From: Myxococcota bacterium
Lineage (GTDB): Bacteria > Myxococcota_A > UBA796 > CAJQPC01
Length of the DNA stretch: 64,000 nt
NCBI GenBank assembly: GCA_036012755.1
Contig: DASCPX010000016.1
Coordinates: 64,001 to 128,000, forward strand
Direction: 5' to 3'
Under the pieces are notes generated by a model. That model was not told the origin of the DNA, did not search any database, and saw only the letters and a program-made list of their open reading frames with translations. Below, in pieces: positions 2,463 to 64,000 of this stretch; positions within the stretch are counted from its first letter, which is position 1; every line of letters begins with the position of its first letter. A program made the translations under genes and the position numbers.

Positions 2463-3005
2463 ATGATCGCACTCTTGTTCACCCTCGCCTGCTCTGGCGA
2501 GACGGAAGAGCCGGAGAGCTGCTGCTCCCTCGAGGACGTCGAGGAGATGTGCTCGGCGGGCCTGTCCGACGAGCTGATCCTGAGCACCATCGAGGTGGCA
2601 CCGGACAAGCTCGAGCTCAGCGCCAAGGATGTCATCACGCTGTCGGACGCCGGCTGCTCGGACGCGGTGATCAACACGCTCCGTGGCACCCCGGTCGAGG
2701 AGGTCGAGGAAGAGGACGCTCCGGGCTCGGCATCTGGTGACGACGACAAGCCGCCCTGGGTGAACATGTCCGTGACCGTCGGCTCCAGGTTCATGGACGT
2801 GCGCAACAACACGAACCAGACCCTGACGAACCTGAGGATCACGGTGAACGGCCAGTACACCTACAACCTCACCAAGCTCGGCCCCACGGACACGGACTCG
2901 ACCCCAAAGAGCAAGTACAAGAGCAGCACCGGCGGCAAGTTCGCCGGCTCGATGACCCGGGTCTACATCAGCTGCGACCAGGGCGTGTACAGCAAGAGCT
3001 ACTGA
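2463..3005 (+). CDS. Hypothetical lipoprotein
   Basis: GGAGG SD, ATG2463, MIALLFTLAC lipobox-like start, typical codon usage. Confidence 0.7.
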   Translation: MIALLFTLACSGETEEPESCCSLEDVEEMCSAGLSDELILSTIEVAPDKLELSAKDVITLSDAGCSDAVINTLRGTPVEEVEEEDAPGSASGDDDKPPWVNMSVTVGSRFMDVRNNTNQTLTNLRITVNGQYTYNLTKLGPTDTDSTPKSKYKSSTGGKFAGSMTRVYISCDQGVYSKSY

Positions 3006-3008
3006 ACC

Positions 3009-5339
3009 TCACAGGGCGACGCGCGTGAAGGCGTCGCCGCCCTCGTTCTCCCCCGCGGGCCGCCAGGACTCCGCGTGAGCCGAGCTCGGCAGCCACCGCC
3101 GCACTGCGGTCTTCAGCGCGCCCGTGCCGTGGCCGTGGAGGATCCACCCGACCGGCTCGTTGGCCAGGACCATGCGATCCAGGAAACGCTCGACGGCATC
3201 GAGAGCCTCGTCAGCCCGTAGCCCACGGAGATCGCAGGTGTTTCGCTCAGTCCGAAGATCCCCGGTGGTCGGCTCGCTCGATCGCACCGACGCCTTGTTC
3301 GCGGCCTTCTTCGGAGCGTCCAACAACACGAGATCGTTGAGCTTGACGCGAGTCCGCAGGCCGCCGATGTCCACCTCCGCGCGCCCCTTCTTGGAGGCGG
3401 TGAGCACACGACCGGTCTTGCCGAGGCTGCGGACACGCACCCGATCACCTGGGCTGACAGAGCCAGGAGAGTCAACGATGACAGGGACTTCGGGCTTCTG
3501 TGGAGCGATCCGTTCCTGCACTCGCCGGACCTCGGCGAGGTCTTGTCCGGCTCCCTGCAGCGTCGGGTTTCGCTGGAGCGTGGCGATGATCGCCTTCACC
3601 TCGTCCTCGGCCGCCCTCAAGCGGGACAGGGCGGCCGTGGCCTCCTTCTCCGCCAGCTGGTGGCTCTTGCCCTGGATCTGCTCCCAGCGCGCACGCAGCT
3701 GCTGCTCCCTTTGTCGCACGCTGGCCTCCAGCTCCAGCGCCCGCTCGGTCGCGAGCAGCGTCGTCACCCGGCGGGTCTCCAGCTCCTCCAGGAGACGCCC
3801 GACCTCGCGCTGGTTGTCATCCAGGTGGGCCTCCGCCGCGTCCACCACCGCCGGATCGAGGCCGAGACGGCGAGCGGTGGAGAAGGCGTGGGACAGCCCC
3901 ACCGCGTCCAGGCGCACCCGGTAGCTCGGCCTGTTGTCCTCGAGGTGGACCGCGGCGTTCCGGAAGCGCGGGTCTGCCTCTGCGAAGGCCTTCAGCTCCG
4001 TGTAGTGGGTGGTCACCGCGACCCGGGCTCCTCGATCGACGAGAACCTCCAGCACGGCCCGGGCCAGCGCCGAGCCCTGAGCCGGATCGGTGCCGACGGC
4101 GACCTCGTCCAGCAGCAGGAGCGCCCCGGGCCGGGCGCGGTCGAGGAGCTCGCGCAGGACCAGCACCTGCCCCGAGAAGGTAGACAGATCCCCCTCCACG
4201 CTCTGGAGGTCGCCGATGTCGGCGAGGACGTCCTCGAAGTGGTCGACCCGCGCCTCCGTGGCTGGGAGAGGGACCCCGGCTCTCGTGAGAAGCGCGAACG
4301 ATCCAAGGGTCTTGAGCGCGATCGTCTTGCCGCCGGTGTTGGGGCCGGAGAGCACCAGGCCCCGGGTCGTCTCGTCCAGGGCCAGGTCGTTGGGCACCAC
4401 CTCGACCTCTCGCAGCACGAGCACCGGGTGGCGGGCGCCGACGAGCCGGATGACACCGCCTCGGCCGACCTCTGGCAGCACCCCCTGCCAGTCGGCGCCG
4501 AGCTTCGCGCGGGCCTGGACGAGGTCGAGGCCGACAGCAGCCTCCAGAGAGGCCTCGACGGGCACCTGGTAGCGACCGAGGAGCGCTGAGAGGCCCCTGA
4601 GGATTCGGGCGATGCTGCGCTGGAGCTCTCCCTCGGCGAGCCGGAGCTTGTTGTTGAGCTCCACGACCGCGGCGGGCTCGACGAAGACGGTCTCCCCGGA
4701 GCCGCTGGTGTCGTGCACGATGCCGAGGCCCTTTCGCCGTGCTTCAGCCCGCACCGGGATGACGTAGCGGTCGCCTCGCTGGGTCACGAAGCGGTCCTGG
4801 AGGATGCCCTCCATGTCCTTGGCCTTCAGCAGGTCGGAGAGCGTCGTGCGGATCTGGCCGTGAAAGGACTGGATGCGCCGGCGGAGCTCGCCGAGCTCCG
4901 GGTAGCGCTGGTCGCTGAGCTGACCGCCTTCGTCGAAGGAGGCCACCAGCTCTTCGAGCATCAGGGCGTCGACGTCGATCGGGGCGCAGAGCCCCTGGAG
5001 CACGGGCAGGTCGCGCTCTTGAACCCAGCAGCGCAGGTGCTCCAGCGCTTGCAGGCAGCGACCCGCCCCGTGGAGCTCCTCCGGCTCGAGCACAGCGCCG
5101 GTGGCGGCCCGCTCGACGGCGCCGAGGATGTCGCTGATGGCCCCGATCGGCAAGCTCTCGCCTTGTTCCTCGAGGGCCTGGATCTCCGCGACTCCGGCAT
5201 AGGCCAACCGCACCCCGTCCCGGTCTCGAGCCAGGGGCAGGCCGGCGGCAGCCCCCCGCAACGTGCGGCAGCGCAGGCCCACCGCGGCGACGACCGCGGG
5301 CCAGTCGAGGGTGTCCAGTGTTCGGCGATCGAGGTCCAC
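3009..5339 (-). CDS. mutS2: MutS2 family protein with Smr domain
   Basis: GPNTGGKT Walker A, LSTFS, LLLLDE..GTDP, coiled coil, KOW, C-terminal Smr (DLRG...ILHGHGTGAL). Confidence 0.95.
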   Translation of the reverse strand: MDLDRRTLDTLDWPAVVAAVGLRCRTLRGAAAGLPLARDRDGVRLAYAGVAEIQALEEQGESLPIGAISDILGAVERAATGAVLEPEELHGAGRCLQALEHLRCWVQERDLPVLQGLCAPIDVDALMLEELVASFDEGGQLSDQRYPELGELRRRIQSFHGQIRTTLSDLLKAKDMEGILQDRFVTQRGDRYVIPVRAEARRKGLGIVHDTSGSGETVFVEPAAVVELNNKLRLAEGELQRSIARILRGLSALLGRYQVPVEASLEAAVGLDLVQARAKLGADWQGVLPEVGRGGVIRLVGARHPVLVLREVEVVPNDLALDETTRGLVLSGPNTGGKTIALKTLGSFALLTRAGVPLPATEARVDHFEDVLADIGDLQSVEGDLSTFSGQVLVLRELLDRARPGALLLLDEVAVGTDPAQGSALARAVLEVLVDRGARVAVTTHYTELKAFAEADPRFRNAAVHLEDNRPSYRVRLDAVGLSHAFSTARRLGLDPAVVDAAEAHLDDNQREVGRLLEELETRRVTTLLATERALELEASVRQREQQLRARWEQIQGKSHQLAEKEATAALSRLRAAEDEVKAIIATLQRNPTLQGAGQDLAEVRRVQERIAPQKPEVPVIVDSPGSVSPGDRVRVRSLGKTGRVLTASKKGRAEVDIGGLRTRVKLNDLVLLDAPKKAANKASVRSSEPTTGDLRTERNTCDLRGLRADEALDAVERFLDRMVLANEPVGWILHGHGTGALKTAVRRWLPSSAHAESWRPAGENEGGDAFTRVAL

Positions 5340-5385: not shown

Positions 5386-6951
5386 TCAGTCCTCGATCTC
5401 GATGCCGGCGTTGAGCTCGAAGCCAGTGATGGTCTTGAGGGTCTCGGTCTCGGGGTCATAGAAGCTGATGCGACCGAGGGCGTGCTCCTGGCTGGCGAAG
5501 GCGTAGTTGGTGTCGGGCAGGGTGCCTACGAAGACCGGGTCGGACTTCAGCGCGACCTCGTCGATGAGCAGGCTCCGGTAGTCGAGCACCTCGAGGTAGG
5601 CCTCGCCCTCCATGATGAAGTAGCCCTTCTCGCCATCGTCGCTGTGAGCGAAGGCGATGGGCTCCTCGGGCAAGGAGTAGTCGTTGGCCCGGAAGCTCGA
5701 GAGCTCCACCATCGTCAGCCCATGGAGATCCTCGTAGGCGGGGTCCATGTCGTCGGCGTTGGCATCGTCGTGCAGGATCAGGGCCGTCTGGCCCGTGGGA
5801 TCGACGCCCACCGCAGCGACCGGCTTCGGCAGGGGATGCACGGAGAACTCGTCGGTCTGTTGGTCCCAGGAGGTGAAGCGGCTGACCCCGGTGGCCGTGC
5901 TGAAGAGCAGCGCGGGGCCGCCCTCGCCCGAGAACGCGATCGAGCCGAGGACCTCGCCATCGGGCATGGTCACGATCTCCGGCTGCGCGGTGGGATCGGC
6001 GAGGTCATAGAGCCAGAGCTCACCGGCCCCTCGGGCCACCGCCACGGCGAAGGCGCCGTCCGGCGTCAGGTCCAGGTCCGTAGGACCGGCGCCGACCACC
6101 AGCTCGCTGGCCCCGAAGTCGACGAGGTCGACGAGCACCAGCTTGGCGGCGTCCCGCTGGCGGAGCAGTGCGTAGCGGCCGTCGGAGTCCACCACGATCT
6201 CCTCGGTCTGGGGCGGGTCGATCTCGTCACCGATGGAGACGAGCTCGATGTCCAGCGGGTCTGCGCTCAGATCGACGATGCCGACCCAGGCATCCCCGAG
6301 CACCACGGCGGTCTGGGCGTCGCTGGTGAAGGCCACGTCGCGAGGCTGGAAGCCCAGGGCCATCGGCGTGTGCGCGCCGCTGGCGACGTGCACGAAGGAG
6401 GCCTCCTTGACCGAGTAGGCGCCGGAGCTGGAGCCCTCGTCCTCGACCCCCATGGCGTTGTAGCAGACCGCCCAGGCGCCATCCGGTGACAGCTCGAAGG
6501 TGTCCAGGTTCGGCCGCAGCTCGACCCGGGTCTCCAGGAGCGTGGCGCTCGGCAGGATCGACAGGTCGTCGGAGCCCCCGTTGTAGGTCAGCGCGTAGAG
6601 GTAGTCCGGGGTGGTCAAGACCTGCTCCGGCCCCTCGCCCACCGGCGCGGTGAGCACGTCCAACGCCGGCACGCCGATGCGCGTGACCGTGTCGCGGTCC
6701 GGGTTGGCCACGAAGACGAAGCTCGGGGCGGGGGCCGGGGCCATGGCGAAGAAGGTGTCCTCCTCCTCGCTCGGGAGGTGGTCCGTGTCGGAGTCCGAGT
6801 CGGTGTCGGCGTCGGAGTCGGCGTCGGAGTCGGCGTCGACGTCGTAGGCGGCCCCGTCCTCGGATTCGGCGCCGGTGTCGCTGGTGTGGAGCTCGCTCTT
6901 CGTGCAGGCCACGAGCGCACACAGCCCCAAGGCGATCGAGACCACCCGCAT
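5386..6951 (-). CDS. Lipoprotein with Asp-rich linker and YVTN-like beta-propeller
   Basis: MRVVSIALGLCALVAC lipobox; DADSDADSDADTDSDSD linker; VGxGP..LTPDG repeats. Confidence 0.8.
   Translation of the reverse strand: MRVVSIALGLCALVACTKSELHTSDTGAESEDGAAYDVDADSDADSDADTDSDSDTDHLPSEEEDTFFAMAPAPAPSFVFVANPDRDTVTRIGVPALDVLTAPVGEGPEQVLTTPDYLYALTYNGGSDDLSILPSATLLETRVELRPNLDTFELSPDGAWAVCYNAMGVEDEGSSSGAYSVKEASFVHVASGAHTPMALGFQPRDVAFTSDAQTAVVLGDAWVGIVDLSADPLDIELVSIGDEIDPPQTEEIVVDSDGRYALLRQRDAAKLVLVDLVDFGASELVVGAGPTDLDLTPDGAFAVAVARGAGELWLYDLADPTAQPEIVTMPDGEVLGSIAFSGEGGPALLFSTATGVSRFTSWDQQTDEFSVHPLPKPVAAVGVDPTGQTALILHDDANADDMDPAYEDLHGLTMVELSSFRANDYSLPEEPIAFAHSDDGEKGYFIMEGEAYLEVLDYRSLLIDEVALKSDPVFVGTLPDTNYAFASQEHALGRISFYDPETETLKTITGFELNAGIEIED
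6786..6842 (-). repeat. Tandem 6/12-bp repeats encoding a (D-A/S/T)n linker
   Basis: gtcgga/gtcggc/gtcggt units read directly. Confidence 0.8.
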
Positions 6952-8895: not shown

Positions 8896-9603
8896 ATGTG
8901 GGTTCTACTACTCGAGTGCTTCCGAGGCGGAGGCGACATCGACAGCGCAGCGCCGCTCGACACGGGCGACACCGCGAACGAGAGCGGCTCCTACTGCGGC
9001 AGCTTCTGGAGGATCGACCAGCTCGGCACCCGCTGGGAGTACGACTTCGTGCCGGACGAGTGGATGGAGGGCTGGAACAAGCTCGAGGTCGTCCGCGAGG
9101 ACACCTACAACGGCGCGGTCGCCTGGGTGGTCTACAACGAGGGCAAGCGGGACACGGGCAGCGCCCGCCACCGCTGGACCAAGGAGCGCTGGTACGTCTG
9201 CGACAAGGAGGGCATCTGGCTCGTCTACGGCACGACCACCTGGACGACCCGGAGGGATGCCGGACGACGAGCCAGCGATCGCGAGGACTACGTCTACACC
9301 GACAACCTGGCCGAGCCAGCCTTCCTCTTCCCAGCGGCGGTCCACCTGGGCGACACCTGGGAGAGCACCGGCACCATCCACCACGTCGACGTCGACACCG
9401 GCGCCGAGATCAGCACGACCTCGCTCGAGGGCGTGCACGAGGTCGTCAGCGAGGCGAACAAGGTCGTACCCAACGGCACCTACGAGACCCTCGTCTTGGA
9501 GTCCAGGCTCCCCGGCTCGGCGGACGTGAGGACCTCGTGGCTGGTCCCGGGTGTCGGCCTCGTCGCTGACGACACCTGGCTACTGTCCTTCTTCTGGGAG
9601 TGA
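8896..9603 (+). CDS. Hypothetical exported protein
   Basis: 235 aa ORF, typical codon bias, C-terminal VPNGTYET...SWLVPGVGLV motif common in secreted beta-rich proteins. Confidence 0.7.
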   Translation: MWVLLLECFRGGGDIDSAAPLDTGDTANESGSYCGSFWRIDQLGTRWEYDFVPDEWMEGWNKLEVVREDTYNGAVAWVVYNEGKRDTGSARHRWTKERWYVCDKEGIWLVYGTTTWTTRRDAGRRASDREDYVYTDNLAEPAFLFPAAVHLGDTWESTGTIHHVDVDTGAEISTTSLEGVHEVVSEANKVVPNGTYETLVLESRLPGSADVRTSWLVPGVGLVADDTWLLSFFWE

Positions 9604-10054: not shown

Positions 10055-10701
10055 GGGCAGGCGCCCCCTGGCAGGAGCCCGGCCTCGCCTTGCTCGATCC
10101 ACCAGGTCCCCGGCTGGGAGTACTCCCCCGCGTAGGGATCGAAGGTCACGCCGTCGTGCTCCACCTGCAGGTGGAGGTGAGGCGTCGAGCTGTGACCGCT
10201 GGAGCCGACCAGCGCCAGCTCCTGGCCACAGCTCACCTCCTCGCCGACGACGACGAGCAAGCTGTCCTTCTTGAGGTGCCAGTAGCGGGTGCGATTGCCC
10301 CCTTCGTGCTCGAGGATCACGTGGTTCGCGACGCCGCTGTGGCCATCACAGTCCACCTCCCCGCCGAGGTCGCCGTGGCAGCGGTCGTAGTGGCCGTCCT
10401 CGACCGACACGACCACGCCGTCCGCCGCCGCGATCACCAGCGTCGAGCCCGCGTCCATCGTGTCGAAGCCGCCCTCGAGCAGGTAGTCCGAGCCCTCGTG
10501 CTCGTCGTAGCAGGCGGGGAAGTGGCGCCCGTCGTAGGCCGTGCAGATCAGCTGCTCGGCGCCCTCGTAGACCGCTGGATCGTGGTCCACGCCGACGGTC
10601 TCGCTGATCAGCTCCGGCTCGGCCAGGGGCAAGGCCAGCTGAAGCGCGGCCCGGGGCACGCCCGAGTCCAGCGGAGGCGTCGTGCAGGCCAACCAGAACA
10701 T
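10051..10701 (-). CDS. M23 family metallopeptidase, lipoprotein
   Basis: HEGSD (HxxxD), YWHL, GSSGHSSTPHLHLQV (HxH); MFWLAC start. Confidence 0.88.
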   Translation of the reverse strand: MFWLACTTPPLDSGVPRAALQLALPLAEPELISETVGVDHDPAVYEGAEQLICTAYDGRHFPACYDEHEGSDYLLEGGFDTMDAGSTLVIAAADGVVVSVEDGHYDRCHGDLGGEVDCDGHSGVANHVILEHEGGNRTRYWHLKKDSLLVVVGEEVSCGQELALVGSSGHSSTPHLHLQVEHDGVTFDPYAGEYSQPGTWWIEQGEAGLLPGGACP

Positions 10702-10708
10702 CGCCCCC

Positions 10709-11545
10709 ATGCTACGTGGAGGCGTGCTCTGGCTGCTCGGGTTCGTCTCCGTCTACCCGCCGCCGAAGGTCGATCCCGGCGCCGTCGAGCTGCCGCTGGT
10801 CGAGCACCCGGAGGATCGGCGCCGCCTCTACGTCGAGTGGGAGGGGCGCATCTGGTTCCTCGACACCGGCTACGCCTCGACGACCTGTGACACGGACTTC
10901 GTCGACGAGCTGGGGTTGCGACGCCGCAAGACCCTGTCCTGGTCCAAGGGCTCCGGAGGGCTCGTGCGCCTGGAGGCGACCCGGCTGCCGGCCTTCGAGC
11001 TCGGCGAGGCCCACATCGGCGAGCTGCGCTGCGCGGTCCGGGACCTCGGCTCGACCTCTTCGATCCCGGACGACGTCGCCGGCGTGCTCGGCATGAACCT
11101 GCTCGGTCGCTTCGTCTTGGAGGTCGACCTCGTAGACGAGGTCATCCGCCTCCACGACCCCTCCACCTGGACCGAGGAGGGCATGGAGCTGCGCAGGGAC
11201 TTCGGCTCCTGGCGGCTGAAGGCACCGGTCACGACCGCCGAGGACACGCGCTGGGCGCTCCTGGACACCGGCGCCACCGGCACCTGGCTCGAGGCAGCCA
11301 AGATGGACCTGGAGCTCCGGGGCTCGGACGTCATCCCGGTCACCGGCACCGGGGGGACCACGGTCATGGAGGTCCGCTACTACCGGGCAGAGGGGCTGGG
11401 CATCGGCGGACTGCCCGCCGAGGGGCTCGTCGTCGTCCGCGAGCGAGACCGCGGCAAGGAGCTCGTCGGCATGGACATGCTCTCCAGCTACGAGGGCTTC
11501 TGGATCGACGTCCGCGAGGCCGAGCTGGGTCTCAGTCCTCGCTGA
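10709..11545 (+). CDS. Retropepsin-like aspartic protease, two domains (start 10709 or 10724)
   Basis: FLDTGY and LLDTGA motifs, GVLGMNLL, LVGMDML. Confidence 0.85.
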   Translation: MLRGGVLWLLGFVSVYPPPKVDPGAVELPLVEHPEDRRRLYVEWEGRIWFLDTGYASTTCDTDFVDELGLRRRKTLSWSKGSGGLVRLEATRLPAFELGEAHIGELRCAVRDLGSTSSIPDDVAGVLGMNLLGRFVLEVDLVDEVIRLHDPSTWTEEGMELRRDFGSWRLKAPVTTAEDTRWALLDTGATGTWLEAAKMDLELRGSDVIPVTGTGGTTVMEVRYYRAEGLGIGGLPAEGLVVVRERDRGKELVGMDMLSSYEGFWIDVREAELGLSPR

Positions 11546-11927: not shown

Positions 11928-11970
11928 GGCGCCGGGGTATAGCACAGGCCGGTTCTGTTGAGGATGACCA

Positions 11971-14334
11971 ATGCTGCTCCTGCTGCTCAGCTGTACGATG
12001 ATGACCCTCATGACCCAGGGGCGCAGCCTCCCCGAGCTGGACGGCCGTCTCGAGGCTCCTGGGCTCGCCGGAGACGCCCGGATCATCCGTGACGAGCGCG
12101 GCATCCCCCACATACGCGCGAACAGCGAGGCGGACGCTGCCTTCGCCGTCGGCTACGCCCACGCCCAGGACCGCCTCTTCCAGATGGACCTCGCCCGCCG
12201 CCTGGCCTACGGAGAGATGTCCGAGCTCCTCGGCGCCGACATGGTGGAGCTGGACATCTTCATGAGGAGCCTCGGCCTCAGGGAGCACGCCACCGGATCA
12301 CTCAAGTCGCTGGACCCGGACGCCCGCTTCGTGCTCGCGGCCTACGCCGCCGGTGTCAACGCCGGACGTGACGCGGCGAAGGTCCCCCCCATCGAGCATC
12401 GCCTCCTCAAGGAGCGCAGGGTGGCCGAGTGGACGCCGATCGACTCGATGGCGATCGCCTACCTCAACTCCTGGTGGCTCTCCCGGAACCCGGAAGAGGA
12501 ACTCTTCGCCTGGCTCCACCGCAAGGAGCTCTCTCGAGAAGACCTCGACGCGCTCTTCCGCTTGCAGCCCGAGACCCCGAAGGCCGACCCATACTGGGAG
12601 GGCCTGCGAAAGGTCCGGGCAGGGGACTTCACGGAGCCCTTCGACACCTTCCTCGAGATGATGACCGGCTACGGCGTGCCCGCCGCGTCGAACAACTGGG
12701 CCGTCTCCGGCGAGCGCAGCGCGGACGGCATGCCCATCCTCGCCAACGACCCGCACCTGTCGCGCTCGGTGCCCGCGACCTGGTACATCCTCGACGCAAA
12801 GGGTGGCGCCTGGCACGCTGCGGGCGGCACGGTGCCGGGCCTGCCCTGGGTGGTCGTCGGTCACAACGAGACCATGGCCTGGGGCGCCACGAACACGATG
12901 GCCGACTACGTCGACTTCGTCGTCCTCGAGCGCGAGGGCCAGATGGAGTACTACCTGGCGGGAGAGAAGAAGCGGCTCCACGAAGAGACCGTCGAGATCG
13001 TCGTGAAGGACGAGGAGCTCCCTCGCACGGCCACCGTCTACCTCACAGATGTCGGCCCGGTCGTCACCGAGCTCGCCGGCACGCACATCCTGGCGATGCG
13101 CTGGAGCGCGCTGCAGAGCGTCGACCTCTCTCCCCAGTTCATCCGCAGCCTCAACCTCGCCCCGAGCGTCGCCGCAGCCCGCGAGATCGACCACACGGCC
13201 TCGTCGACCTCGTTGAACCTGGTCCTCGCGGACGACCAGGGCGACATCGGCTGGCAGGTCACCGGGCTCGTGCCCAAGCGCATGGCCCACACCGGGCGCC
13301 TGCCATACCCGGGCAGCTCCGAGCACCACGGCTGGGAGGGCTTCTGGGATGAGCTCCCGGGCGAGCTCAACCCGGAGCGAGGCTACGTCGCCACCGCCAA
13401 CGACTACCCCTCGGAGTACCTCCCGCTGGAGTCCGAGGAGACCGACGCGACAGAGGACGACGAGGGGGACCCGCGGCAGCTCGCCACACCCGACGAGGTG
13501 AGCAGCAGCTACATCCTGCCCTGGCGGATCGACCGCATCCGCGAGCTGCTCGAGGCCACCGAAAAGCACACGGTCCAGACCTTCCAGTCCCTGCAGATGG
13601 ACAAGCGCGACAACCACGCCGCCGCCCTGGTCCCGGAGCTCCTCGGCGACATCGACACCAAGACGGAGGGCGGGGCCTGGGTCCAGGAGCAGCTGTTGGC
13701 CTGGGACTTCGTGGCGATGCCGCGGGGCTCGGAGGAGCTGCTGTGGGCCGAGTTCAACAAGCAGCTCGTGCGCTACGCCCTGGAGGACACCCTGTCTCCA
13801 GAGGGCATCGAGGACTACATGTGGGCCGCCACGGTCGGGGGCTCCGTGATCGAGGTCGAGGGAGGCCTGGCCCACTTCGTCGAGGACACGGACATGGCCC
13901 GCCGCGCGGCGCTGTTGGAGACCCACAAGGCGCTCACCGCGAGGCTCGGCGAGAGCACCTCGAACTGGCGCTGGGAGAACGTGCACCCGCTGCACTTCGA
14001 TCACCCCTTCCAGGCCTCTGGCGCGCCCTCGACCTTCAGCGCCGGCACCGTGGACGACCACGGCTCCTCTCCCGCGGCGGTCAACCCGGGGGGCTACTCC
14101 TGGTCCAAGGAGAGCTACGAGACGACCTGGATCGCCAGCATGCGCCTGGTCGTGCCGCTCTCCGACGTCGGGCAGGCGATGGTCGTCCTCCCTCCAGGCC
14201 AGTCCGGACAGCCCGGCAGCGACCACTACCAGGACCAGCTGCGCTTCTGGAAGAAGGGGGAGCTGTTGCCCCTGTGGTTCCATGACGCCGACGTCGAGCG
14301 TGAAGCCGCACACACCCTGGAGCTGACGCCATGA
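11971..14334 (+). CDS. Penicillin acylase family Ntn-hydrolase
   Basis: RDERGIPHI, GYAHAQDRLFQMD, catalytic SNNWAVSG, LANDPHL, PPGQSG..S.HY.DQ. Confidence 0.93.
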   Translation: MLLLLLSCTMMTLMTQGRSLPELDGRLEAPGLAGDARIIRDERGIPHIRANSEADAAFAVGYAHAQDRLFQMDLARRLAYGEMSELLGADMVELDIFMRSLGLREHATGSLKSLDPDARFVLAAYAAGVNAGRDAAKVPPIEHRLLKERRVAEWTPIDSMAIAYLNSWWLSRNPEEELFAWLHRKELSREDLDALFRLQPETPKADPYWEGLRKVRAGDFTEPFDTFLEMMTGYGVPAASNNWAVSGERSADGMPILANDPHLSRSVPATWYILDAKGGAWHAAGGTVPGLPWVVVGHNETMAWGATNTMADYVDFVVLEREGQMEYYLAGEKKRLHEETVEIVVKDEELPRTATVYLTDVGPVVTELAGTHILAMRWSALQSVDLSPQFIRSLNLAPSVAAAREIDHTASSTSLNLVLADDQGDIGWQVTGLVPKRMAHTGRLPYPGSSEHHGWEGFWDELPGELNPERGYVATANDYPSEYLPLESEETDATEDDEGDPRQLATPDEVSSSYILPWRIDRIRELLEATEKHTVQTFQSLQMDKRDNHAAALVPELLGDIDTKTEGGAWVQEQLLAWDFVAMPRGSEELLWAEFNKQLVRYALEDTLSPEGIEDYMWAATVGGSVIEVEGGLAHFVEDTDMARRAALLETHKALTARLGESTSNWRWENVHPLHFDHPFQASGAPSTFSAGTVDDHGSSPAAVNPGGYSWSKESYETTWIASMRLVVPLSDVGQAMVVLPPGQSGQPGSDHYQDQLRFWKKGELLPLWFHDADVEREAAHTLELTP

Positions 14335-19628: not shown

Positions 19629-21500
19629 GTGCTGCTGCTGTGCGCCTGGCCCGCCCAGGCCGGGGTCAACGCCCAGGCGCTCCAGACCCGCGACGGAGGC
19701 GACTGGATCGCCCTGCGAGAGGCCGAGGCCGGGCCTCCATGGACCGCGGCGCTGGCATACGGCACCCACTACAGCAGGGATCTCGTCGTCTTCATCGATG
19801 CCGACGGCGAGCAGATCCTGCTGGGCCAGGTCTGGACCACCGAGCTCGGCGTGTCCGTGATGTTCGGCGAGCACCTCCGCGTCGGGGCCGCCTTGCCGCG
19901 CCACACCTGGATCGTCTGGAGGGGCGAGCTCTCCGACGAGAAGCGCCTCGGGGACGTGGGCCTCTGGACGACCATCCCCCTGAAGCGGCCATCACAAGAG
20001 AGCCCCCTGGCCCTGGCGTGGACGGTCTCGACCGACTTCGCCACCGGCCCCTCGCACCTCTACCTGGGCGACCCGGGGGGCTCCGTGATGGGTCACCTCG
20101 CGGCCGAGCGGAGCCTCTACGGCCCGCTGTCGATGGCAGCGAACGCCGGGCTCGAGCTCCGCTCCGACACAGAGCTCCCCGGCACCACCTGGGGGAACCG
20201 CTTCGAGTACGGGGTGGGCCTGGCCTCGCACATCGCGGGGCCCTTCCACGTCAACACGGAGCTCTTCGGCTCCACCCCCTTTCGTGGCGAGAGCACCGCC
20301 GCGAACTACCCGGTCGAGGTCCTCGCCGCGGCCCGCTTCGACCTCCCGGCCGACTTCGTGCTCTCGGTCGGAGGTGGCACGGGCCTCACCCGCGGCCTCG
20401 GCAGCCCCAGCGTGCGCGGCTTCGCGATGCTGGACCATCGCCCCCGGCAGCGCCCGGACAGCGACGGCGACGGCCTCGACGACCTTCGTGACCTCTGCCC
20501 GAATGACCCAGAGGACTTCGACGACTGGCAGGACAAGGACGGCTGCCCCGAAGAGGACAACGACGAAGACGGCCTCGTCGATCGAGAGGACAGCTGCCCG
20601 AACGACCCAGAGGTCGAAAACGGCTACCGCGACCTCGACGGCTGCCCGGACCGCCTCGTCACCGTGCGCCTGCGCGTGGTCTCACCGGCGCCAGAGCTGG
20701 AGCAGGCCACCATCAACCTCGGCGAGTTCGCCCCCAGCGGCCTGCTCCCCGGTGAGTGGTTCACCGTCGAGCTGCCGCCGACGACCTTCTCGATGCGGGT
20801 CACAGGAGAGGGGCACCTCCCCTACGAGGGCCTCTTGGAGGTCCCGGACGAGGAGCTCTACGAGCTGGAGATCCCGCTCTCACCCATCCTCTTCGGCGAT
20901 CTGAGCCTGCGCCTGGAGGACCCCTCCGGAGAGCCCCTGGCCGGCTGGCTCCGTGGCATCGAGCAGGGCCTGTTGCCCGTCCCAGCCGAGGGCGCCACCC
21001 TGCGGCTGCAGACCGGTCCCCACGAGCTCCTGCTCGTCGCCCCGAGCCACACGCCGGCGCGGCTCACGGTGGAGGTGGAGCCGGAGAACCCGTGGACCGA
21101 GGTCGTCGTGCTCCAGCCCTCCGGGGTGGCGCTGGAGGACAACCGGATCGTGCTCGACGGCCTCATCGAGTTCGAGCTGGACTCGAGCGTGCTGTTGCCC
21201 GAGTCCGACAGCCTGCTCGACGAGGTCGCGGCGCTGTTGCTGTCCCACCCCGACATCGAGCTCCTTCGGGTCGAAGGCCACGCGGACGAGTCGGGGGACT
21301 CCCGCTACAACCTGGAGCTCTCCCAGGCACGCGCGGAGGCAGTCGTCGCCTACCTCGTCGAGGCAGGAGTGGACGCGGAGCACCTCCAGGCCCTCGGCAC
21401 TGGAGAGGCAGAGCCCCTGTCCGAGGAGTCAAGGTCTCGTCGGGTTTCCTTCACCGTGCTCGTCTGGGACGACGAAGCCGGCCGACCGGAGCTACCGTGA
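19629..21500 (+). CDS. OmpA-family protein: beta-barrel-like N-terminus, thrombospondin type-3 repeats, OmpA C-terminal domain (TraB-like architecture)
   Basis: GTGLTRGLGSP; DSDGDGLDD..DLCP..PED.D..QD.DGCP repeats; VEGHAD...YNLELSQARA. Confidence 0.85.
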   Translation: MLLLCAWPAQAGVNAQALQTRDGGDWIALREAEAGPPWTAALAYGTHYSRDLVVFIDADGEQILLGQVWTTELGVSVMFGEHLRVGAALPRHTWIVWRGELSDEKRLGDVGLWTTIPLKRPSQESPLALAWTVSTDFATGPSHLYLGDPGGSVMGHLAAERSLYGPLSMAANAGLELRSDTELPGTTWGNRFEYGVGLASHIAGPFHVNTELFGSTPFRGESTAANYPVEVLAAARFDLPADFVLSVGGGTGLTRGLGSPSVRGFAMLDHRPRQRPDSDGDGLDDLRDLCPNDPEDFDDWQDKDGCPEEDNDEDGLVDREDSCPNDPEVENGYRDLDGCPDRLVTVRLRVVSPAPELEQATINLGEFAPSGLLPGEWFTVELPPTTFSMRVTGEGHLPYEGLLEVPDEELYELEIPLSPILFGDLSLRLEDPSGEPLAGWLRGIEQGLLPVPAEGATLRLQTGPHELLLVAPSHTPARLTVEVEPENPWTEVVVLQPSGVALEDNRIVLDGLIEFELDSSVLLPESDSLLDEVAALLLSHPDIELLRVEGHADESGDSRYNLELSQARAEAVVAYLVEAGVDAEHLQALGTGEAEPLSEESRSRRVSFTVLVWDDEAGRPELP

Positions 21501-21507: not shown

Positions 21508-22434
21508 ATGCTCCTGTTGATCGCCTGCACCAAGACCCCGGAGCCTGGCGACAGCTCCGCCGATCTGCCCGATCCGGTGGGCGATCCCGACACCGTCGAG
21601 CTCCTCGGCATGTGTCCCCTGGCCGATCACCTCGGGGGCTTCATCGTCGAGGTCGCTCCCGACACCTCCATCGTCGACGGCCGCGTCCGGGACGGGGTCG
21701 TGCCGATCACCGTACTCACAGAGGTGACGAGGCTCGACGAGTGCGCTCTGTTGCGCCGGGAGAACCCCTACTGCGACCCGGACTGCGAGATCGACGAGGC
21801 CTGCGACCTCGACGAGACCTGCATCCCCTACCCCTCTGACGTGGACCTGGGCACGGTCACCCTCGCTGGCCTCGAAGAAGACCTGCGCATGGAGCCGGTC
21901 ACCCCCGGCTTCCGCTACTTCGACACCTCCCTGTCCCACCCGGCCCTGGCCGGCGGAGAGCTCCTGGAGCTCCACGCCTACGGGGCGCTGGACGAGGTGG
22001 TGCTCCACGGGGTCGGCCCGACACCCCTGGTGGCCGAGCTGGAAGAAGACCTCGTCGTCGTCGAAGGCAGCGCCCTGAGCTTGTCCTGGGAGGGGGACCC
22101 TGGGGGCCGCAGCAGCCTGGCGCTCCAGCTGTCGATCGACCAGCACGGCTCCTCGCCCCTGCGCATCGTCTGCGAGCTGGAGGACGACGGCGCCGGAGAG
22201 GTCCCCGTCGAGCTCGTCGAGGCGCTGCTCGGCGGAGGCGTGACCGGCTACCCCAACGCCACCCTCACCCGCCACACGGCGGACCTCGCAGAGATCGACG
22301 GCGGCTGCGTGGACCTCGAGGTCTCGAGCCCCCTGCCGGTGGGCGTGCGGGTCGAGGGCTACATCCCCTGCACCGACGAGGACGACTGTCCGCCCACCAT
22401 GGACTGCAACACGGAGATCGAGCTTTGTCAGTGA
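21508..22434 (+). CDS. Cys-rich hypothetical lipoprotein
   Basis: MLLLIAC start; CDPDC..DEAC..DETC and C-terminal CTDEDDCP...C motifs. Confidence 0.75.
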   Translation: MLLLIACTKTPEPGDSSADLPDPVGDPDTVELLGMCPLADHLGGFIVEVAPDTSIVDGRVRDGVVPITVLTEVTRLDECALLRRENPYCDPDCEIDEACDLDETCIPYPSDVDLGTVTLAGLEEDLRMEPVTPGFRYFDTSLSHPALAGGELLELHAYGALDEVVLHGVGPTPLVAELEEDLVVVEGSALSLSWEGDPGGRSSLALQLSIDQHGSSPLRIVCELEDDGAGEVPVELVEALLGGGVTGYPNATLTRHTADLAEIDGGCVDLEVSSPLPVGVRVEGYIPCTDEDDCPPTMDCNTEIELCQ

Positions 22435-25789: not shown

Positions 25790-26277
25790 TCTGGCTGCTG
25801 GCGTGCAACGGGGTTCCAGACGACACGGACTCCCAGGAAAGTGATCCACAGGTTGTGGACAGCTCTGTGGACCCGCCGTTTTTGGCCGATCACCTCGTGA
25901 TCAACGAGCTCGTCTCCCTGGGGACCGGGGGAGACTGGGTGGAGTTGTTCAACCCGACCAGCGAGGAGATCGATCTCTCGACCTGGGAGATCACAGACGA
26001 CGCAGAGAACGACGTGTTGGCCTGGCGCCTGCCAGAGGACATCTCCATCGCAGCGGGGGGCTACTTCCTCATCTGGTGCGACAACGGCGCGGACGGACTC
26101 CACACGGACTTCCAGCTCTCCCAGGGCGAACACATCACGATCTATTCCGAGCTGGGCCTGCGCGTAGACGAGGTAGAGGTCCCCTCGCTCATCGTCGACC
26201 AGGCAGCTGCGCGCATCCCAGACGGCTGGAGCACCTGGGAGGCCCAGGACCCCACCCCCGAAGCCAGCAACGAGTAG
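25786..26277 (+). CDS. Lamin-tail-domain lipoprotein
   Basis: LVINEL...DWVELFNP...DLS.W.ITD, ARIPDG, PTP...N; MIWLLAC start. Confidence 0.85.
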   Translation: MIWLLACNGVPDDTDSQESDPQVVDSSVDPPFLADHLVINELVSLGTGGDWVELFNPTSEEIDLSTWEITDDAENDVLAWRLPEDISIAAGGYFLIWCDNGADGLHTDFQLSQGEHITIYSELGLRVDEVEVPSLIVDQAAARIPDGWSTWEAQDPTPEASNE

Positions 26278-37458: not shown

Positions 37459-37492
37459 GGCGGGCTGTCACTTCTTCGATTCGAGGCTTCCA

Positions 37493-38016: not shown

Positions 38017-38249
38017 GTCGGTTGTTGACCGAACTCCTCGTCCTTCCGATCCGCGCCTGGCAGCTGTTGGTCTCCAGCTGGATGCCGCCTGTCTGTCGCT
38101 TCGAGCCCAGCTGCAGTCGCTACGGCATCGAAGCCCTCCGCGTTCACGGCCCCCTGCGAGGCCTCTGGCTCGGTGGCCGCCGCATCCTCCGCTGCAATCC
38201 CTTCTGCGAGGGTGGCTTCGACCCCGTCCCGCCCATCGAGCTGGACTGA
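38013..38249 (+). CDS. yidD: Membrane protein insertion efficiency factor YidD
   Basis: CRFEPSCSRYG, RILRCNPF..GG.DPVP. Confidence 0.95.
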   Translation: MSRLLTELLVLPIRAWQLLVSSWMPPVCRFEPSCSRYGIEALRVHGPLRGLWLGGRRILRCNPFCEGGFDPVPPIELD

Positions 38250-43218: not shown

Positions 43219-44426
43219 TCCTGCTGTTTGCCACCCTGGCCCTCGCCGACGACGAGCCAGCGGTCGAAGCGAGCGAGACGATCACCGGCGACGCCGAGCG
43301 CCCGGAGCTCGGAGAGGTCGAGGAGCGTGCCTCTGAGGTCGACCTGGTGGAGGCCGAGGGCGAGTGGAACGCCCGAGTGGTCTACGGGGCGCGAGCCCTG
43401 TCGCTCGAAGAGGACTTCGTCGGGCAGGTTCAGCGAGGCTGCGAGCTCATCTTCGAGCGGCAGTACGGGACCGCGAAGAAGCACTGGAAGCAGATGGGCA
43501 AGGACTGGCCAGACCGCGGCATCGAGCACGCCGGGCACGTGTTGGTCTACCAGGCGCTGATGATGGAGAACTTCGACTTCGCCTGGGAGAAGTCCTACAA
43601 GAAGTCCAACGACGCAGCCATGGCCGAGCTCGAGCTGGCGATCGACGAGCCGGGCCGTGAAGGCTGGGACCACTTCCTCGCGGCGGCGATGCTGGGGGTG
43701 GAGGCGATCCACCTCATGCGCAAGGAGGACTACCTCCCCGCCATCTGGCGAGGCCTCGAGGCGGTCGAGCACGTCGACGTCGTGCGCCAGGTGGCACCGG
43801 ACTTCAAGGACGTGCTGCTCGGCGATGGCCTCTACAAGTACTGGCGGTCGGTGGTCACCATGTCCTACAAGGCGCTCCCGGACTTCGGCGACGAGCGCGC
43901 CGACGGCATCGCCGACATGGTGCAGGCGGAGAAGGAGGCCGTCTTCCTCGGGCCAGGCGCGACCCTGGCGCTGGCCTTCACCTGGATCGAGGAGCGCAAG
44001 ATGGACAAGGCGCTGTCCTCGACCTTGAAGAACCACCGAGCCTACCCGGACAACGTGGTCAACAACCTCGTGCTGTCCCGGGTCTACCTCTTCCAGAAGC
44101 GGTACAAGGACTCCAAGAAGATCCTCGACGAGGTGGTGGCCGATGCCCCCGAGAACGAGCGGGTCCACTACTACCTGGCGACGGTGAACCAGAAGCTGAA
44201 GGACTACTCGGCGGCCGAGGAGGAGATCGACCTCTACCTCAGCTTCGACTTGCTGCCCTACTACGAGGCCCAGGCCTATCACCGCAAGGGCGAGCTCTAC
44301 TTCCGCCGAAAGGACTACGCGACCGCGGAGGCGTGGTTCAAGAAGGCCGTGAAGACCGACGGCTACAAGCCCGCCAAGAGGCGCCTCGAGAAGCTCAAGA
44401 AGATGAGGAAGGACGGCGAGTACTGA
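43215..44426 (+). CDS. Exported TPR-repeat protein
   Basis: Short signal MILLFATLALA; C-terminal TPR-like helices. Confidence 0.75.
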   Translation: MILLFATLALADDEPAVEASETITGDAERPELGEVEERASEVDLVEAEGEWNARVVYGARALSLEEDFVGQVQRGCELIFERQYGTAKKHWKQMGKDWPDRGIEHAGHVLVYQALMMENFDFAWEKSYKKSNDAAMAELELAIDEPGREGWDHFLAAAMLGVEAIHLMRKEDYLPAIWRGLEAVEHVDVVRQVAPDFKDVLLGDGLYKYWRSVVTMSYKALPDFGDERADGIADMVQAEKEAVFLGPGATLALAFTWIEERKMDKALSSTLKNHRAYPDNVVNNLVLSRVYLFQKRYKDSKKILDEVVADAPENERVHYYLATVNQKLKDYSAAEEEIDLYLSFDLLPYYEAQAYHRKGELYFRRKDYATAEAWFKKAVKTDGYKPAKRRLEKLKKMRKDGEY

Positions 44427-47028: not shown

Positions 47029-48537
47029 ATGCTCGGACTGCTCCTCTGCCTGATGAACCCGGCGCTCGCGGAAGATCTGCGCGAGCCGACCCGCGTCTTC
47101 GTCTCCGAGTTCCAGGCCTCCAGCAAGGAAGCCGAGAGCCTGGCGGTGCTGCTGTCGGGCTTCCTCTCTTCCCAGCTGGGGGACCACCCGGATCTCGTCA
47201 GCATCCCCGCGAGCGCCGCCCCCGACTTCGGCGAGTACAGCGCCCGGGTCTACCTCCTGTCCTGCCCTCCCGGCGAGTACCTCGGCTGCGCCTTCGTCGT
47301 CGGCGACCGGGTCGAGGCGCGCTACGCCATCGCCGGCACCGTCGCGACCACGACCAGCGGCAGTGTCGTCCACGTCACCATCATCGACGTCTGGAACTCC
47401 CGCGAGGCCCTGGCCTTCGACGCGGAGCTCGGGCTCGGGGACGACCAGGCCTTCGCAGAGGGCGTCGCCCAGATCCTCGTCGCCGTGATCGAAGGGCGCG
47501 AGGGGCGTCACGACGACATTCGTGAGTTCGACGACCCGGAGCTGGAGGCCCAGGCCCGCGCCGACGCCGAGCTGGCCTCTCGCCAGCTGGCTGCCCTCGC
47601 CGCCGAGATCGGCGACGTCACCACGCTGACCTCTCGTGGTGGTGGTGCCATCGATCGCCCCGAGTACACCCTCGGGGACCTCGAGCTGGAAAGTCGCACG
47701 GACGCCCGGCCAGCCTGGGAGATGCTCGGCATGACCCCGGGCGAGTACATCAAGTACAAGAACTCGGGCCTGACCGTGCTCCAGTGGCGGGATCTCGCGG
47801 CGGGCCGCCGGCACCAGGTCGTCGTGCGCATGGGCGGCCTGGTCTCCCTCGGACCGTGGTCGTCGACCTACGAGGGCTGGTACGCCCAGGACAGCACCAC
47901 CGGCGAGGTCATGGAGGCCAAGGCCTGGCAGGCCCGGTCGGCCAGCTCCGGATCCGGCGGTACGGCCTGGGTGGGCTTCGGCGTGCACCCGCTGCTCGAG
48001 GTGGACCTCGGCCTGGGCGCCGTCTCCGGCCGCTACTACATGCACATCCAGCAGGAGATCGTCGGAGATGAGCCCATCGTGCGCGACGGCGTCGACTTCG
48101 GCGCTCCCAACTTCCTCGTCGGCGCTCGGGTGATCGGAGCTCCCCTGCCGACGCACACGCTGCGTCCCCAGCTCGGCATCGGGGCGCTGTACGTCATCGG
48201 CGAGGGCAACGAGAGGAACCAGATTCCGGCTTCTGCCACGACCCTGCCGAGCTTCGCGGGAAACCACCTCCTGCTCATACAGGTGCTCCCCGGGGCCGAG
48301 GTCAGCTTGTCCGACACGCTCGATCTGTACCTGGTCGTGCCGCTGTCGGCTGTCATCGCCGGCCAACCGCAGAGGACCTGGAGCGGCGAAGCGAAGACCC
48401 CGGGCGCCCTCCAGACCTACCAGGACCCCGCGGCCGCTCCGATCTTCAGCGCCGGGGCCGAAGCCGGCTTCGCGGTTCGGCTCGGTGGCGGTCCGAAGCC
48501 TATGCCCAGGTTCGACGACCTGGACGAGCCCGAATGA
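47029..48537 (+). CDS. Hypothetical exported protein (alpha/beta N-domain plus probable beta-barrel)
   Basis: Signal MLGLLLCLMNPALA; amphipathic strands in the C-terminal half. Confidence 0.65.
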   Translation: MLGLLLCLMNPALAEDLREPTRVFVSEFQASSKEAESLAVLLSGFLSSQLGDHPDLVSIPASAAPDFGEYSARVYLLSCPPGEYLGCAFVVGDRVEARYAIAGTVATTTSGSVVHVTIIDVWNSREALAFDAELGLGDDQAFAEGVAQILVAVIEGREGRHDDIREFDDPELEAQARADAELASRQLAALAAEIGDVTTLTSRGGGAIDRPEYTLGDLELESRTDARPAWEMLGMTPGEYIKYKNSGLTVLQWRDLAAGRRHQVVVRMGGLVSLGPWSSTYEGWYAQDSTTGEVMEAKAWQARSASSGSGGTAWVGFGVHPLLEVDLGLGAVSGRYYMHIQQEIVGDEPIVRDGVDFGAPNFLVGARVIGAPLPTHTLRPQLGIGALYVIGEGNERNQIPASATTLPSFAGNHLLLIQVLPGAEVSLSDTLDLYLVVPLSAVIAGQPQRTWSGEAKTPGALQTYQDPAAAPIFSAGAEAGFAVRLGGGPKPMPRFDDLDEPE

Positions 48538-62752: not shown

Positions 62753-62768
62753 GGAGTACCCTCTCCCC

Positions 62769-64000
62769 ATGTTGCTGGTCCTCCTGAGCTGCACCAGAGA
62801 GGCTGGCGAGCTCCAGCGCTGCAGCATCGACGCCCCTGAGTCGACGACGCTGCGGGTGGACGGCACGGAGCTCATCGACGAGCACGACCGGGTCGTCCAG
62901 CTCCGGGGGGTCAACGCCGGTGGACGCAGCAAGTTCGCGCCCTACGCGCCCTTCGAGTTCGAGGACTACGACGAGGAGCTCGGCCCCTACCTCGACCGGG
63001 CCGCCAGCTGGGGTATCGACGTCTTGCGCGTGCCCTTTTCGTGGGAAGCCGTCGAGCCAGCCCAGGGCGTGATCGACGAGGCCTTCCTGTCCCGCTACGA
63101 CGCCCTGCTCGACGGCGCCTGGGACCGCGGAATGTGGACCATCGTCGACTTCCACCAGGACATCTACGCAGAGGTCTTCTGCGGAGACGGCTTCCCCGCG
63201 TGGACCGTGGACACCGATCGGGAGCCCCACCACGACTGCTCGGACTGGGGCTCGAGCTACTTCCTCGACGACGACGTGCAGGCCGCGTTCACCGACTTCT
63301 GGGCCGACGAAAACGGGACCCAGGAGGCCTACGGCGCGATGTGGGAGGCCATGGCCGCCCGACACGCGGATCGTCCCGGGGTGCTCGGCTACGAGCTGAT
63401 CAACGAGCCCCACGAGGGGGAGGCCTCCGACTGGGACACAGAGGTCCTGCCGGCCTTCTACAGCGAACACGCGGCCCGGCTGCAGGCCATCGACGACGAC
63501 GCCATCGTGTTCTTCGACGTCGGCGGCCTCGACGGCATCTCGGTGAGCACCGACCTGGAGCTGCCCGAGGGGGACAACCTCGTCTTCGCCCCCCACTACT
63601 ACAACCCCCAGGTCTACCTGGGCGGCTCGCTGGAGATCGACGTGCCCGCCGAGATCGCTGGCTGGCACGACCAGGGGGTCGACTGGGACGTGCCGGTGCT
63701 GGTCGGCGAGTTCGGCGTGCAGCCCTCTCGCGAGGGCGCCGCGGAGTACGTGGCCCGGCACTTCCAGGCCTTCGACGAGCTCGACCTGCACGGCACGGTC
63801 TGGGAATACAGCACGGCGGAGGAGCTCTGGAACGAAGAGGACTTCTCCCTGGTCGAGGCCGACGGCACCGAGCGTGAGACCGTCGTGAGCGTGATGCGGC
63901 CCTATGCCAAGGCGCTGGCCGGAGAGCTGGTCGAGCAGTCCTGGTCCGGGGGGACGTTCACGCTTCGATACACCGCGGAGCCAGGCGGCATCAGCGAGAT
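62769..64000 (+). CDS. GH5 endoglycoceramidase-like glycoside hydrolase, lipoprotein (runs off the window)
   Basis: Hand-translated MLLVLLSC..., LRGVN, WEAVEP, DFHQD...GDGFPAW, GYELINEP, FAPHYY, VGEFG, RPYA. Confidence 0.88.
   Translation, partial: MLLVLLSCTREAGELQRCSIDAPESTTLRVDGTELIDEHDRVVQLRGVNAGGRSKFAPYAPFEFEDYDEELGPYLDRAASWGIDVLRVPFSWEAVEPAQGVIDEAFLSRYDALLDGAWDRGMWTIVDFHQDIYAEVFCGDGFPAWTVDTDREPHHDCSDWGSSYFLDDDVQAAFTDFWADENGTQEAYGAMWEAMAARHADRPGVLGYELINEPHEGEASDWDTEVLPAFYSEHAARLQAIDDDAIVFFDVGGLDGISVSTDLELPEGDNLVFAPHYYNPQVYLGGSLEIDVPAEIAGWHDQGVDWDVPVLVGEFGVQPSREGAAEYVARHFQAFDELDLHGTVWEYSTAEELWNEEDFSLVEADGTERETVVSVMRPYAKALAGELVEQSWSGGTFTLRYTAEPGGISE

Follow-up and report, generated by a model that had tools for sequence, protein, structure and literature searches.

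Our results reveal that short, uncharged export signals occur throughout the genome of a Myxococcota bacterium, where we confirmed them in about one gene in seven, and that the trait is restricted to its lineage. The signals came to attention in a 64,000-nucleotide stretch of contig DASCPX010000016.1 (the window; unprefixed coordinates below are positions within it), for which an initial annotation had listed nine N-termini resembling lipoprotein signals of unusual brevity with no basic residue ahead of the cysteine. All nine were located at their coordinates. The broader proposal of that annotation, that the lineage uses a minimal uncharged signal for export and lipidation, is supported by the start sites, by the lipoboxes, and by the homologs. 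A tripartite signal peptide that begins with a basic N-terminal region (n-region) is regarded as near universal; judged from their sequences, these cells seem to export proteins and anchor them to lipid by a rule outside standard models and predictors. The explanation that we favor, with reasonable though incomplete assurance, is that the short leaders are true minimal Sec signals that enter the translocon N-terminus first and are processed by ordinary enzymes.

Scale, anatomy, and start sites of the short class

The genome that contains the window (G000) is 6.73 Mb long, with 68% GC and an estimated completeness of 96%. Our first gene caller was a codon-model script of our own, and a short start was defined as a start codon followed by three to nine uncharged residues and [ASG]C. 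Such starts were found in the N-terminal zone of 871 of 5819 genes, far in excess of the controls (16 of 4930 zones inside genes and 56 of 28741 shadow open reading frames). A second, signal-blind caller, which chooses starts without regard to signals, returned 5487 genes, among them 949 encoding lipobox proteins. A genome-wide count, as the initial annotation had proposed, gives short uncharged lipobox starts with the cysteine at residues 6 to 12 (mode 8) in 790/5487 genes, and lysine or arginine precedes the cysteine in 12/790. The corresponding score for internal methionines, obtained with a looser limit (Cys at or before 13), was 10/4047. A canonical class coexists in the same genome, with the cysteine at 16 to 22 in 83 genes and a basic residue in 76 of them. 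The two classes are discrete and separated by a trough at Cys 13-15.

Apart from their length and charge, the short signals look much like lipoprotein signals. The residue at -1 is Ala, Gly, or Ser in 544/576 (94%) and the residue at -3 is Leu in 363/576, neither of which was selected for, while the residue at -2 is chiefly Leu (366/576), a mild departure from the lipobox [LVI][ASTVI][GAS]C. The best six-residue hydropathy sum is 17.5 for short and 17.6 for canonical signals, and nearly all short signals hold only four to seven strongly hydrophobic residues. The initial annotation had also claimed short starts of the signal peptidase I (SPase I) type. This was borne out by 377 calls of uncharged signals of at most 15 amino acids, as against 58/4047 internal-Met controls, with BamA and SurA among the proteins concerned. 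By our rule, an A-x-A end is present on 152/325 hydrophobic starts that have no lipobox, with a peak at residue 11. The short signals have no Arg and so no twin-arginine translocation (Tat) motif; a Tat-like motif is matched by 20 other genes.

Several lines of evidence indicate that the short starts are almost certainly genuine. Were the true starts upstream, at rare start codons or reached through read-through or a frameshift, the signals would be ordinary and their brevity an artefact of start calling. An upstream ATG, GTG, or TTG could place the cysteine beyond residue 12 in 400/868 genes, and a few individual short calls are indeed internal starts of this kind. However, an upstream in-frame stop holds the cysteine at or before 12 in 468/868 genes when those three codons are allowed, and in 123/868 when any start codon is allowed. 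Three independent start signals also peak at the short start (n=870): TAnnnT boxes at leaderless spacing (97 genes at offset 12, 41 at offset 13) versus 0-12 at other offsets, Shine-Dalgarno sequences in 68-139 genes at offsets 8-12 versus about 4-21 elsewhere, and a four-base overlap with an upstream stop (+4) in 148 genes. At least one of the three accompanies 600/790 short starts and 3063/4697 other genes, and 144/790 short starts have an in-frame stop within three codons upstream. Furthermore, independent database gene calls give the same starts. The artefact is thus largely refuted, and we give it hardly any credence. In a related observation, TAnnnT at leaderless spacing occurs in 151/790 short-signal lipoproteins (19%) versus 412/4697 other genes (9%; Fisher p ~3e-16). 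New starts within the old hydrophobic region (h-region) may often have arisen together with a new promoter.

Homologs, cargo, and distribution across the order

The initial annotation had regarded normal-length signals in homologs as grounds for doubting the short ones. Such homologs exist, yet they favor its claim, because they keep the same lipobox cysteine and the residues missing here are not encoded upstream. Among homologs of the protein encoded at 23843, 91/119 pass the lipobox rule, and among those of the amidase-family protein encoded at 11971 it is passed by 49/62 top-clade sequences, in short or canonical form. Both families keep the same cysteine behind leaders that are either short and uncharged or normal and basic, as in MRTAILLSFALSGC from the 11971 family versus MLLLLLSC here. 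Another 57, more distant amidases of that family mostly have an N-terminal anchor instead, with a lipobox in 2. In homologs called by database pipelines, lysine or arginine is present in 1/45 with the cysteine at 7-10 and in 74/78 with the cysteine at 14-21. Within G000, a full-length short-signal paralog exists for 15/91 canonical lipoproteins. The protein at 23843-25789 has a PPDK_N (phosphoenolpyruvate/pyruvate-binding) domain on a lipoprotein-type precursor, and since 91 of its homologs have a lipobox, this is, on that evidence, a predicted exported family of a normally cytoplasmic fold.

The cargo provides a further argument. In this genome short signals occur on BamA, SurA, CpoB, and BamD, and canonical ones on TolB and Skp. 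BamA (810 amino acids here) must be exported, and because it carries a short signal, short signals must work. We surveyed 29 bamA loci, of which 16 were read and the remaining 13 were not reliably readable. The BamA signal is 13-17 amino acids long without a basic residue in six genomes (G000, G202, G242, G014, G387, and G252), with a stop immediately before the ATG in G242; it is 19 amino acids without a basic residue in G297, and basic, with 18-29 amino acids, in nine others.

One could suppose that the leaders are hydrophobic tags that escape cleavage or lipidation, and that the proteins behind them are cytoplasmic or only membrane associated. The normally cytoplasmic PPDK_N domain at 23843 would fit that account. 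The account sits poorly, however, with the small residue at -1 in 94% of the signals, with their homology to canonical lipoboxes, and with their presence on BamA, SurA, CpoB, and OmpA-domain proteins, and we consider it improbable. We regard export and lipidation of the short-signal proteins as very likely. Two further envelope proteins are of note in their own right. The BamD homolog (L113, G000:C149:39842-40825, minus strand) has a short SPase I-type signal with no lipobox cysteine, unlike BamD of Escherichia coli. The two best Pal-like proteins (G000:C70:95675-96215, minus strand, and G000:C211:28791-29517, plus strand) have basic signals of normal length with odd lipoboxes, A-A-T-C and A-S-K-C.

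Only one order of uncultured Myxococcota makes heavy use of short signals, as seen from 60 genomes of the order and 341 outside it. For this comparison we used a fixed pattern, ATG followed by five hydrophobic codons, Ala, and Cys, tallied by eye, which matches 42 times in G000 against 0-2 times for reversed-pattern controls. At least 5 matches were found in 22/60 order genomes, and no more than 4 in each of the 341 others. Use within the order is patchy, with 56-90 matches within a single genus of the family, 3-41 throughout a second family (12/12 genomes), and 0-2 in many others. The short fraction of lipobox proteins was 5/7, 8/9, 15/23, 8/15, and 4/11 in five high-use genomes; 2/9, 3/7, 4/17, 1/5, 1/5, 1/4, 1/4, 1/6, and 0/3 in others; and 1/2 and 0/3 in class-level outgroups, all noisy values given the small samples available for relatives (17-100 kb; G212 and G007 were excluded as too small). 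High users are scattered over separate subclades of a quick SecY tree.

Processing enzymes, charge exclusion, and the translocon

The genome encodes secA, secY/E/G, secD/F, yajC, yidC, ffh, ftsY, lepB, lolA, a lolC-like gene, five lgt, two lspA, and lnt. The initial annotation had suggested that a minimal signal might need an adapted Sec, Lgt, or LspA, or another targeting route. The part concerning Lgt and LspA found no support. The catalytic residues are intact: all five Lgt proteins retain the equivalents of R143, R239, and G154 of the E. coli enzyme, and both LspA proteins retain the two catalytic Asp. Copy number is ordinary, with 3-5 lgt in 22 order genomes versus 2-7 in 12 outside, and 1-2 lspA in 13 order genomes versus 1-3 in 5 outside; in the 27 of 30 lspA loci that were recovered, no order-specific change in LspA was evident by eye. 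Given this overlap, we rejected an Lgt expansion as the adaptation. In addition, LspA cleaves Abz-LALAGC*SS, which has a five-residue leader, in vitro (PMC6952399). As observations in their own right, two lspA and two lgt lie in one operon (L001-L005, G000:C59:99964-102645), and in two further Lgt paralogs an HDHPG motif replaces GCCxG.

SecA, which the annotation had proposed to inspect, likewise offered no explanation: 23 order and 9 outside sequences revealed no order-specific change at the prlD sites or in the signal groove. Ffh differs at K58R and E336K, neither obviously linked to the trait (23 versus 7 sequences, leaving out G018, whose match contains stops, and G007, which gave no match), and SecG has no order-diagnostic column (23 versus 8 sequences). 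Elsewhere in SecA (L107, G000:C23), Cys stands in place of E. coli His897 in the C-terminal metal-binding motif order-wide, and E431Q is also present.

A dedicated non-Sec or accessory route, such as a targeting factor, YidC, or an Lgt paralog acting as receptor, might serve the short class and leave the canonical one to Sec. Such a division would account for the discreteness of the two classes across the trough at Cys 13-15, and candidate parts are at hand in the five Lgt and two LspA paralogs and in the tandem ArsA/Get3-like ATPases of the window. Yet the cargo includes BamA, at 810 amino acids, and SurA; orthologs switch class freely; and the copy numbers of Lgt and LspA do not track the trait, nor does the SecA groove or Ffh show a change obviously tied to it. 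Judged from the cargo and from Lgt, LspA, SecA, and Ffh, we think a separate route unlikely.

What needs explaining is how such signals are targeted and open the channel, for which the best clue is that basic residues are excluded from the short signals and not just absent. Under a relaxed rule that leaves one to four leading positions unconstrained, lysine or arginine occurs in 10/677 proteins with the cysteine at 6-10 versus 62/71 with the cysteine at 16-22, against a background in other genes of 16.5% at residue 2 alone and 36% within residues 2-4. Where basic residues are present, they mostly lie 13-16 residues ahead of the cysteine. A seven-residue helix is about 10 Å long and the hydrocarbon core of a membrane about 30 Å thick, so a helical leader of seven residues is too short to cross it and could not remain anchored on the cytoplasmic side, as loop insertion would have it, while its Cys reaches Lgt and LspA. 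Charge would not be tolerated because the leader would be buried or carried across N-terminus first.

We propose that the basic n-region and the first half of the h-region have disappeared from most envelope proteins of this organism, which would have left Met, four to six strongly hydrophobic residues, and either a standard lipobox (Cys 7-10) or an A-x-A site (about 9-14 amino acids). The precursor would reach SecYEG through SecA together with mature-domain signals, or through the signal recognition particle (SRP). Mature domains hold targeting signals of their own (PMC5412566), and SRP binding can leave formyl-Met on the nascent chain, so that the N-terminus stays neutral (PMC5454389). The leader would then be buried in the channel or carried through it N-terminus first and would tether the chain at the outer leaflet, where ordinary Lgt, LspA, and Lnt (or LepB) would act on the lipobox or the A-x-A site as their sole requirement. 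Loss of deformylase was considered and rejected, as two def and one fmt are present.

A number of points weigh against this proposal. We infer head-first entry solely from charge exclusion and geometry. Export in E. coli depends on n-region charge and h-region length (PMC9360617), and given those requirements the proposal does not explain why ordinary Sec would suffice for such signals. The sequence after the cysteine offers no compensation in lipoproteins, since its net charge is -3.2 in short and -3.0 in canonical ones (p=0.65), and a more acidic flank is weakly indicated for SPase I signals (p=0.012). Moreover, a clear Shine-Dalgarno sequence, -10 box, or overlap is absent from 190/790 short starts, and the gene calls, start calls, and SPase I rule come from simple scripts of our own instead of Prodigal or SignalP.

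An altered translocon could supply part of what ordinary Sec leaves unexplained, and here the suggestion of an adapted Sec survives as a lead, although the change concerned is not sufficient alone and no clear adaptation of SecA or Ffh accompanies it. SecY position 187 is Ala or Ser in 26/26 sequences of the order and Ile or Met in 9/9 outside it, E. coli included. A phylum-wide pattern, scored by eye with 29/151 genomes unmatched, gives Ala or Ser in 19/19 matched order genomes versus 0/103 outside. Further SecY changes in the order are F192T, T168S/A, E110Q, and G123X, and SecE has order-diagnostic changes at I107 and L111, on either side of the prlG1 site L108. The remaining five residues of the SecY pore ring are largely intact, and the catalogued prl positions in SecY, SecE, SecG, and SecA (L645 of SecA aside) hold no order-specific allele. 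Smith et al., in 2005, reportedly tested ring residues including I187.

These changes could amount to a relaxed, prl-like translocon that lets short signals work, with the pore ring loosened first and the signals eroded repeatedly afterward. Such a history would add to minimal Sec signals as the explanation and not replace them. It would explain why the residue at 187 is changed order-wide and why heavy users fall in several separate SecY subclades, as expected after one permissive change. I187 belongs to the isoleucine pore ring (PMC2171872), substitutions in that ring often yield super-active E. coli SecY (PMC13537251, section 8), and the SecE changes flank a known prlG site. Nevertheless, the change has one origin, so that the evidence is correlative, and many members of the order that have it make little use of short signals. 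Ala or Ser also occupies position 187 in 20/147 distant SecY representatives. None of the five SecY positions appears among the published prl alleles tabulated in PMC3804617 (Table S1), and with a normal signal the E. coli variants F192S (+0.28 log2) and I187M (+0.47) are only mildly more active, in a library without I187A/S (PMC13537251, data S1). Nor is SecY unusually changed overall, as 8/250 of its columns (3.2%) are order diagnostic and housekeeping controls range from 0 to 6.7%, several housekeeping genes having been skipped for too few sequences. A contribution of this kind is therefore a tentative suggestion, which we would not expect to hold.

Outside the Myxococcota, the I187S pattern, with F192 kept, occurs in 6/251 genomes of another phylum, of which five were tested for short signals and gave 0 matches, which led us to reject I187S as sufficient. 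One of the other-phylum genomes (G458, L345) has a SecY confirmed to combine I187S with an unchanged F192, and 0/5 of its lipobox proteins are short in 220 kb. The fullest version of the idea, that the order evolved a natural prl-like SecYE (I187A/S with repacked transmembrane helices TM3-TM5 of SecY and TM3 of SecE) and with it a second, charge-free, N-terminus-first entry into Sec, is if anything slightly more doubtful. If true, several subclades would have come to rely on prl-like entry for many SPase I substrates, BamA included, and for lipoproteins, of which it would serve as much as about 90%.

Signals of the window and comparison with known systems

The signals of the window and associated features are collected in Table 1. 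The initial annotation had stated that several of the starts cannot be extended upstream. This is correct for 11971, 25786, and 8896, which have no earlier in-frame start, and incorrect insofar as a stop/start overlap was taken for a hard block. At 22431 a TTG two codons upstream (22425) would put the cysteine at 9, and at 10701 an ATG three codons upstream (10710) would do the same, so both would still be short. The frames of 2463, 21508, and 23843 remain open beneath the preceding gene, that of 2463 as far as GTG 2379 beneath psd, with GGAGG 6-10 nucleotides before the start. All window starts other than the three capped ones are backed by a Shine-Dalgarno sequence, a -10 box, an overlap, or the proximity of the preceding gene, or else their alternative starts would also give short signals. 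The T/P/D/S/E-rich linker and extracytoplasmic domain described as usual hold only in part, as 11971 has no acidic linker and PPDK_N of 23843 is not normally extracytoplasmic. For the OmpA-domain gene at 19629 the start caller picked GTG 19599 instead, and the N-terminus is uncharged there too.

The signal at 8896 is probably a degenerate member of the short class. Its Glu at -1 is the sole such case among 576. The same-genus ortholog reads (GTG)WILFMNC, so that Asn occupies -1, and its frame is closed by a stop three codons upstream. A canonical basic signal is present on a family homolog. An assembly error is not supported by these relatives.

Table 1. Predicted export signals and associated features of the window
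Position	Strand	Feature	Gene product or context
2463..2492	+	Short signal peptidase II (SPase II)-type signal MIALLFTLA-C (Cys10)	180-amino-acid protein, 2463-3005, no Pfam match
6904..6951	-	Canonical basic lipoprotein-type signal MRVVSIALGLCALVA-C (Cys16)	Internal control in the window
8896..8919	+	Degenerate short signal MWVLLLE-C (Cys8, Glu at -1)	235-amino-acid protein, 8896-9603
10684..10701	-	Short signal MFWLA-C (Cys6; Cys9 if from ATG 10710)	M23 peptidase, 10051-10701
10709..10714	-	TAGCAT, -10-like hexamer	Begins 13 nucleotides before the 10701 start (leaderless-type spacing)
11965..11967	+	In-frame TGA	Caps the 11971 signal
11971..11994	+	Short signal MLLLLLS-C (Cys8)	Penicillin-amidase-family protein, 11971-14334
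19629..19661	+	Possible short SPase I signal (GTG)LLLCAWPAQA	OmpA-domain protein; ambiguous start
21508..21528	+	Short signal MLLLIA-C (Cys7)	Gene 21508-22434, first of four coupled lipoprotein-type genes
22431..22451	+	Short signal (GTG)ILWLA-C (Cys7)	SGL/beta-propeller protein, 22431-23846; GTGA overlap
23843..23869	+	Short signal MILWALVS-C (Cys9)	PPDK_N-domain protein, 23843-25789; ATGA overlap
25786..25806	+	Short signal (GTG)IWLLA-C (Cys7)	Lamin-tail-domain protein, 25786-26277; GTGA overlap; no earlier in-frame start
38249..39955	+	yidC	Export machinery gene
43215..43247	+	Short SPase I-type signal (GTG)ILLFATLALA (~11 amino acids; putative cleavage site)	TPR protein
47029..47070	+	Short uncharged SPase I-type signal MLGLLLCLMNPALA (14 amino acids; putative cleavage site)	
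62769..62792	+	Short signal MLLVLLS-C (Cys8)	GH5 glycoside hydrolase, 452 amino acids, extends beyond the window end

Other genes of the window deserve mention. A replication-origin cluster, gyrB-recF-dnaN-dnaA, lies together with yidC at 30982-39955. Adjoining gyrB on the minus strand are the tandem ArsA/Get3-like ATPases (PF02374; 27715-28854 and 28851-29789), members of a group of proteins that can handle hydrophobic segments. Two B12-binding radical SAM genes (56660-58066 and 59986-61584) flank an uncharacterized gene.

Our literature search, with subscription journals outside its coverage, found no description of a short uncharged signal trait, and a term search of a secretome survey covering Myxococcota (PMC11495043) found no passage on short signals or lipoproteins. 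The organism offers a natural, genome-scale exception with an internal control, as hundreds of short signals stand beside about ninety canonical ones in one cell. Pairs of paralogs or orthologs that switch class make it possible to test how little a signal must contain and whether loop insertion is obligatory, and the short signals, SecY positions 187 and 192, and SecE positions 107 and 111 are specific reagents with which to do so, in E. coli by genetics or in cell-free assays of Sec. A predictor that insists on a basic n-region or on a minimum length would overlook about 14% of the proteome as lipoproteins and hence misread the envelope of a group about which little is known. Secretion engineering could also make use of very short signals and a tolerant translocon.

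Among known systems, the short lipoprotein signals most resemble Sec/SPase II signals of the E. coli Lpp type. They share the lipobox L-L-[AGS]-C, a Leu-rich core, and a disordered tether after the cysteine, and they are accompanied by a full Lgt/LspA/Lnt/Lol machinery and by direct homology to canonical lipoproteins. They differ in having no basic n-region (lysine or arginine in 12/790), where the canonical n-region is positive (PMC9360617), and in spanning 5-11 residues, roughly half the canonical "about twenty amino acids" (PMC6952399). Furthermore, the short class is the majority here, by about 9:1 over signals with the cysteine at 16-22. The short SPase I-type signals have the hydrophobic core, A-x-A site, and polar or acidic mature start of Sec/SPase I signals and stand on BamA, SurA, and OmpA-domain proteins, but are about 9-14 residues long and uncharged, versus 20-30 residues with a basic n-region (PMC5427057). 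As read from their sequences, the short signals thus fail two defining features of Sec/SPase I and II signals, the basic n-region and the length.

The translocon of the order recalls the E. coli prl translocons (prlA/secY, prlG/secE, prlH/secG, and prlD/secA), which export proteins whose signals are defective or absent (PMC3804617), in its large-to-small change in a pore-ring residue. Unlike it, prl variants are laboratory alleles that lie elsewhere, with I187, F192, T168, E110, and G123 missing from the published prl table (PMC3804617, Table S1), and I187S is present in other organisms without short signals. Finally, the proposed entry resembles N-out (type III-like) insertion with retained formyl-Met, where charge is likewise disfavored and the N-terminus ends up buried or across the membrane, formyl-Met being a group that SRP can preserve (PMC5454389). 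The likeness, which we infer, has its limits, as the segment falls far short of the length of a transmembrane helix and a large C-terminal domain must also cross.

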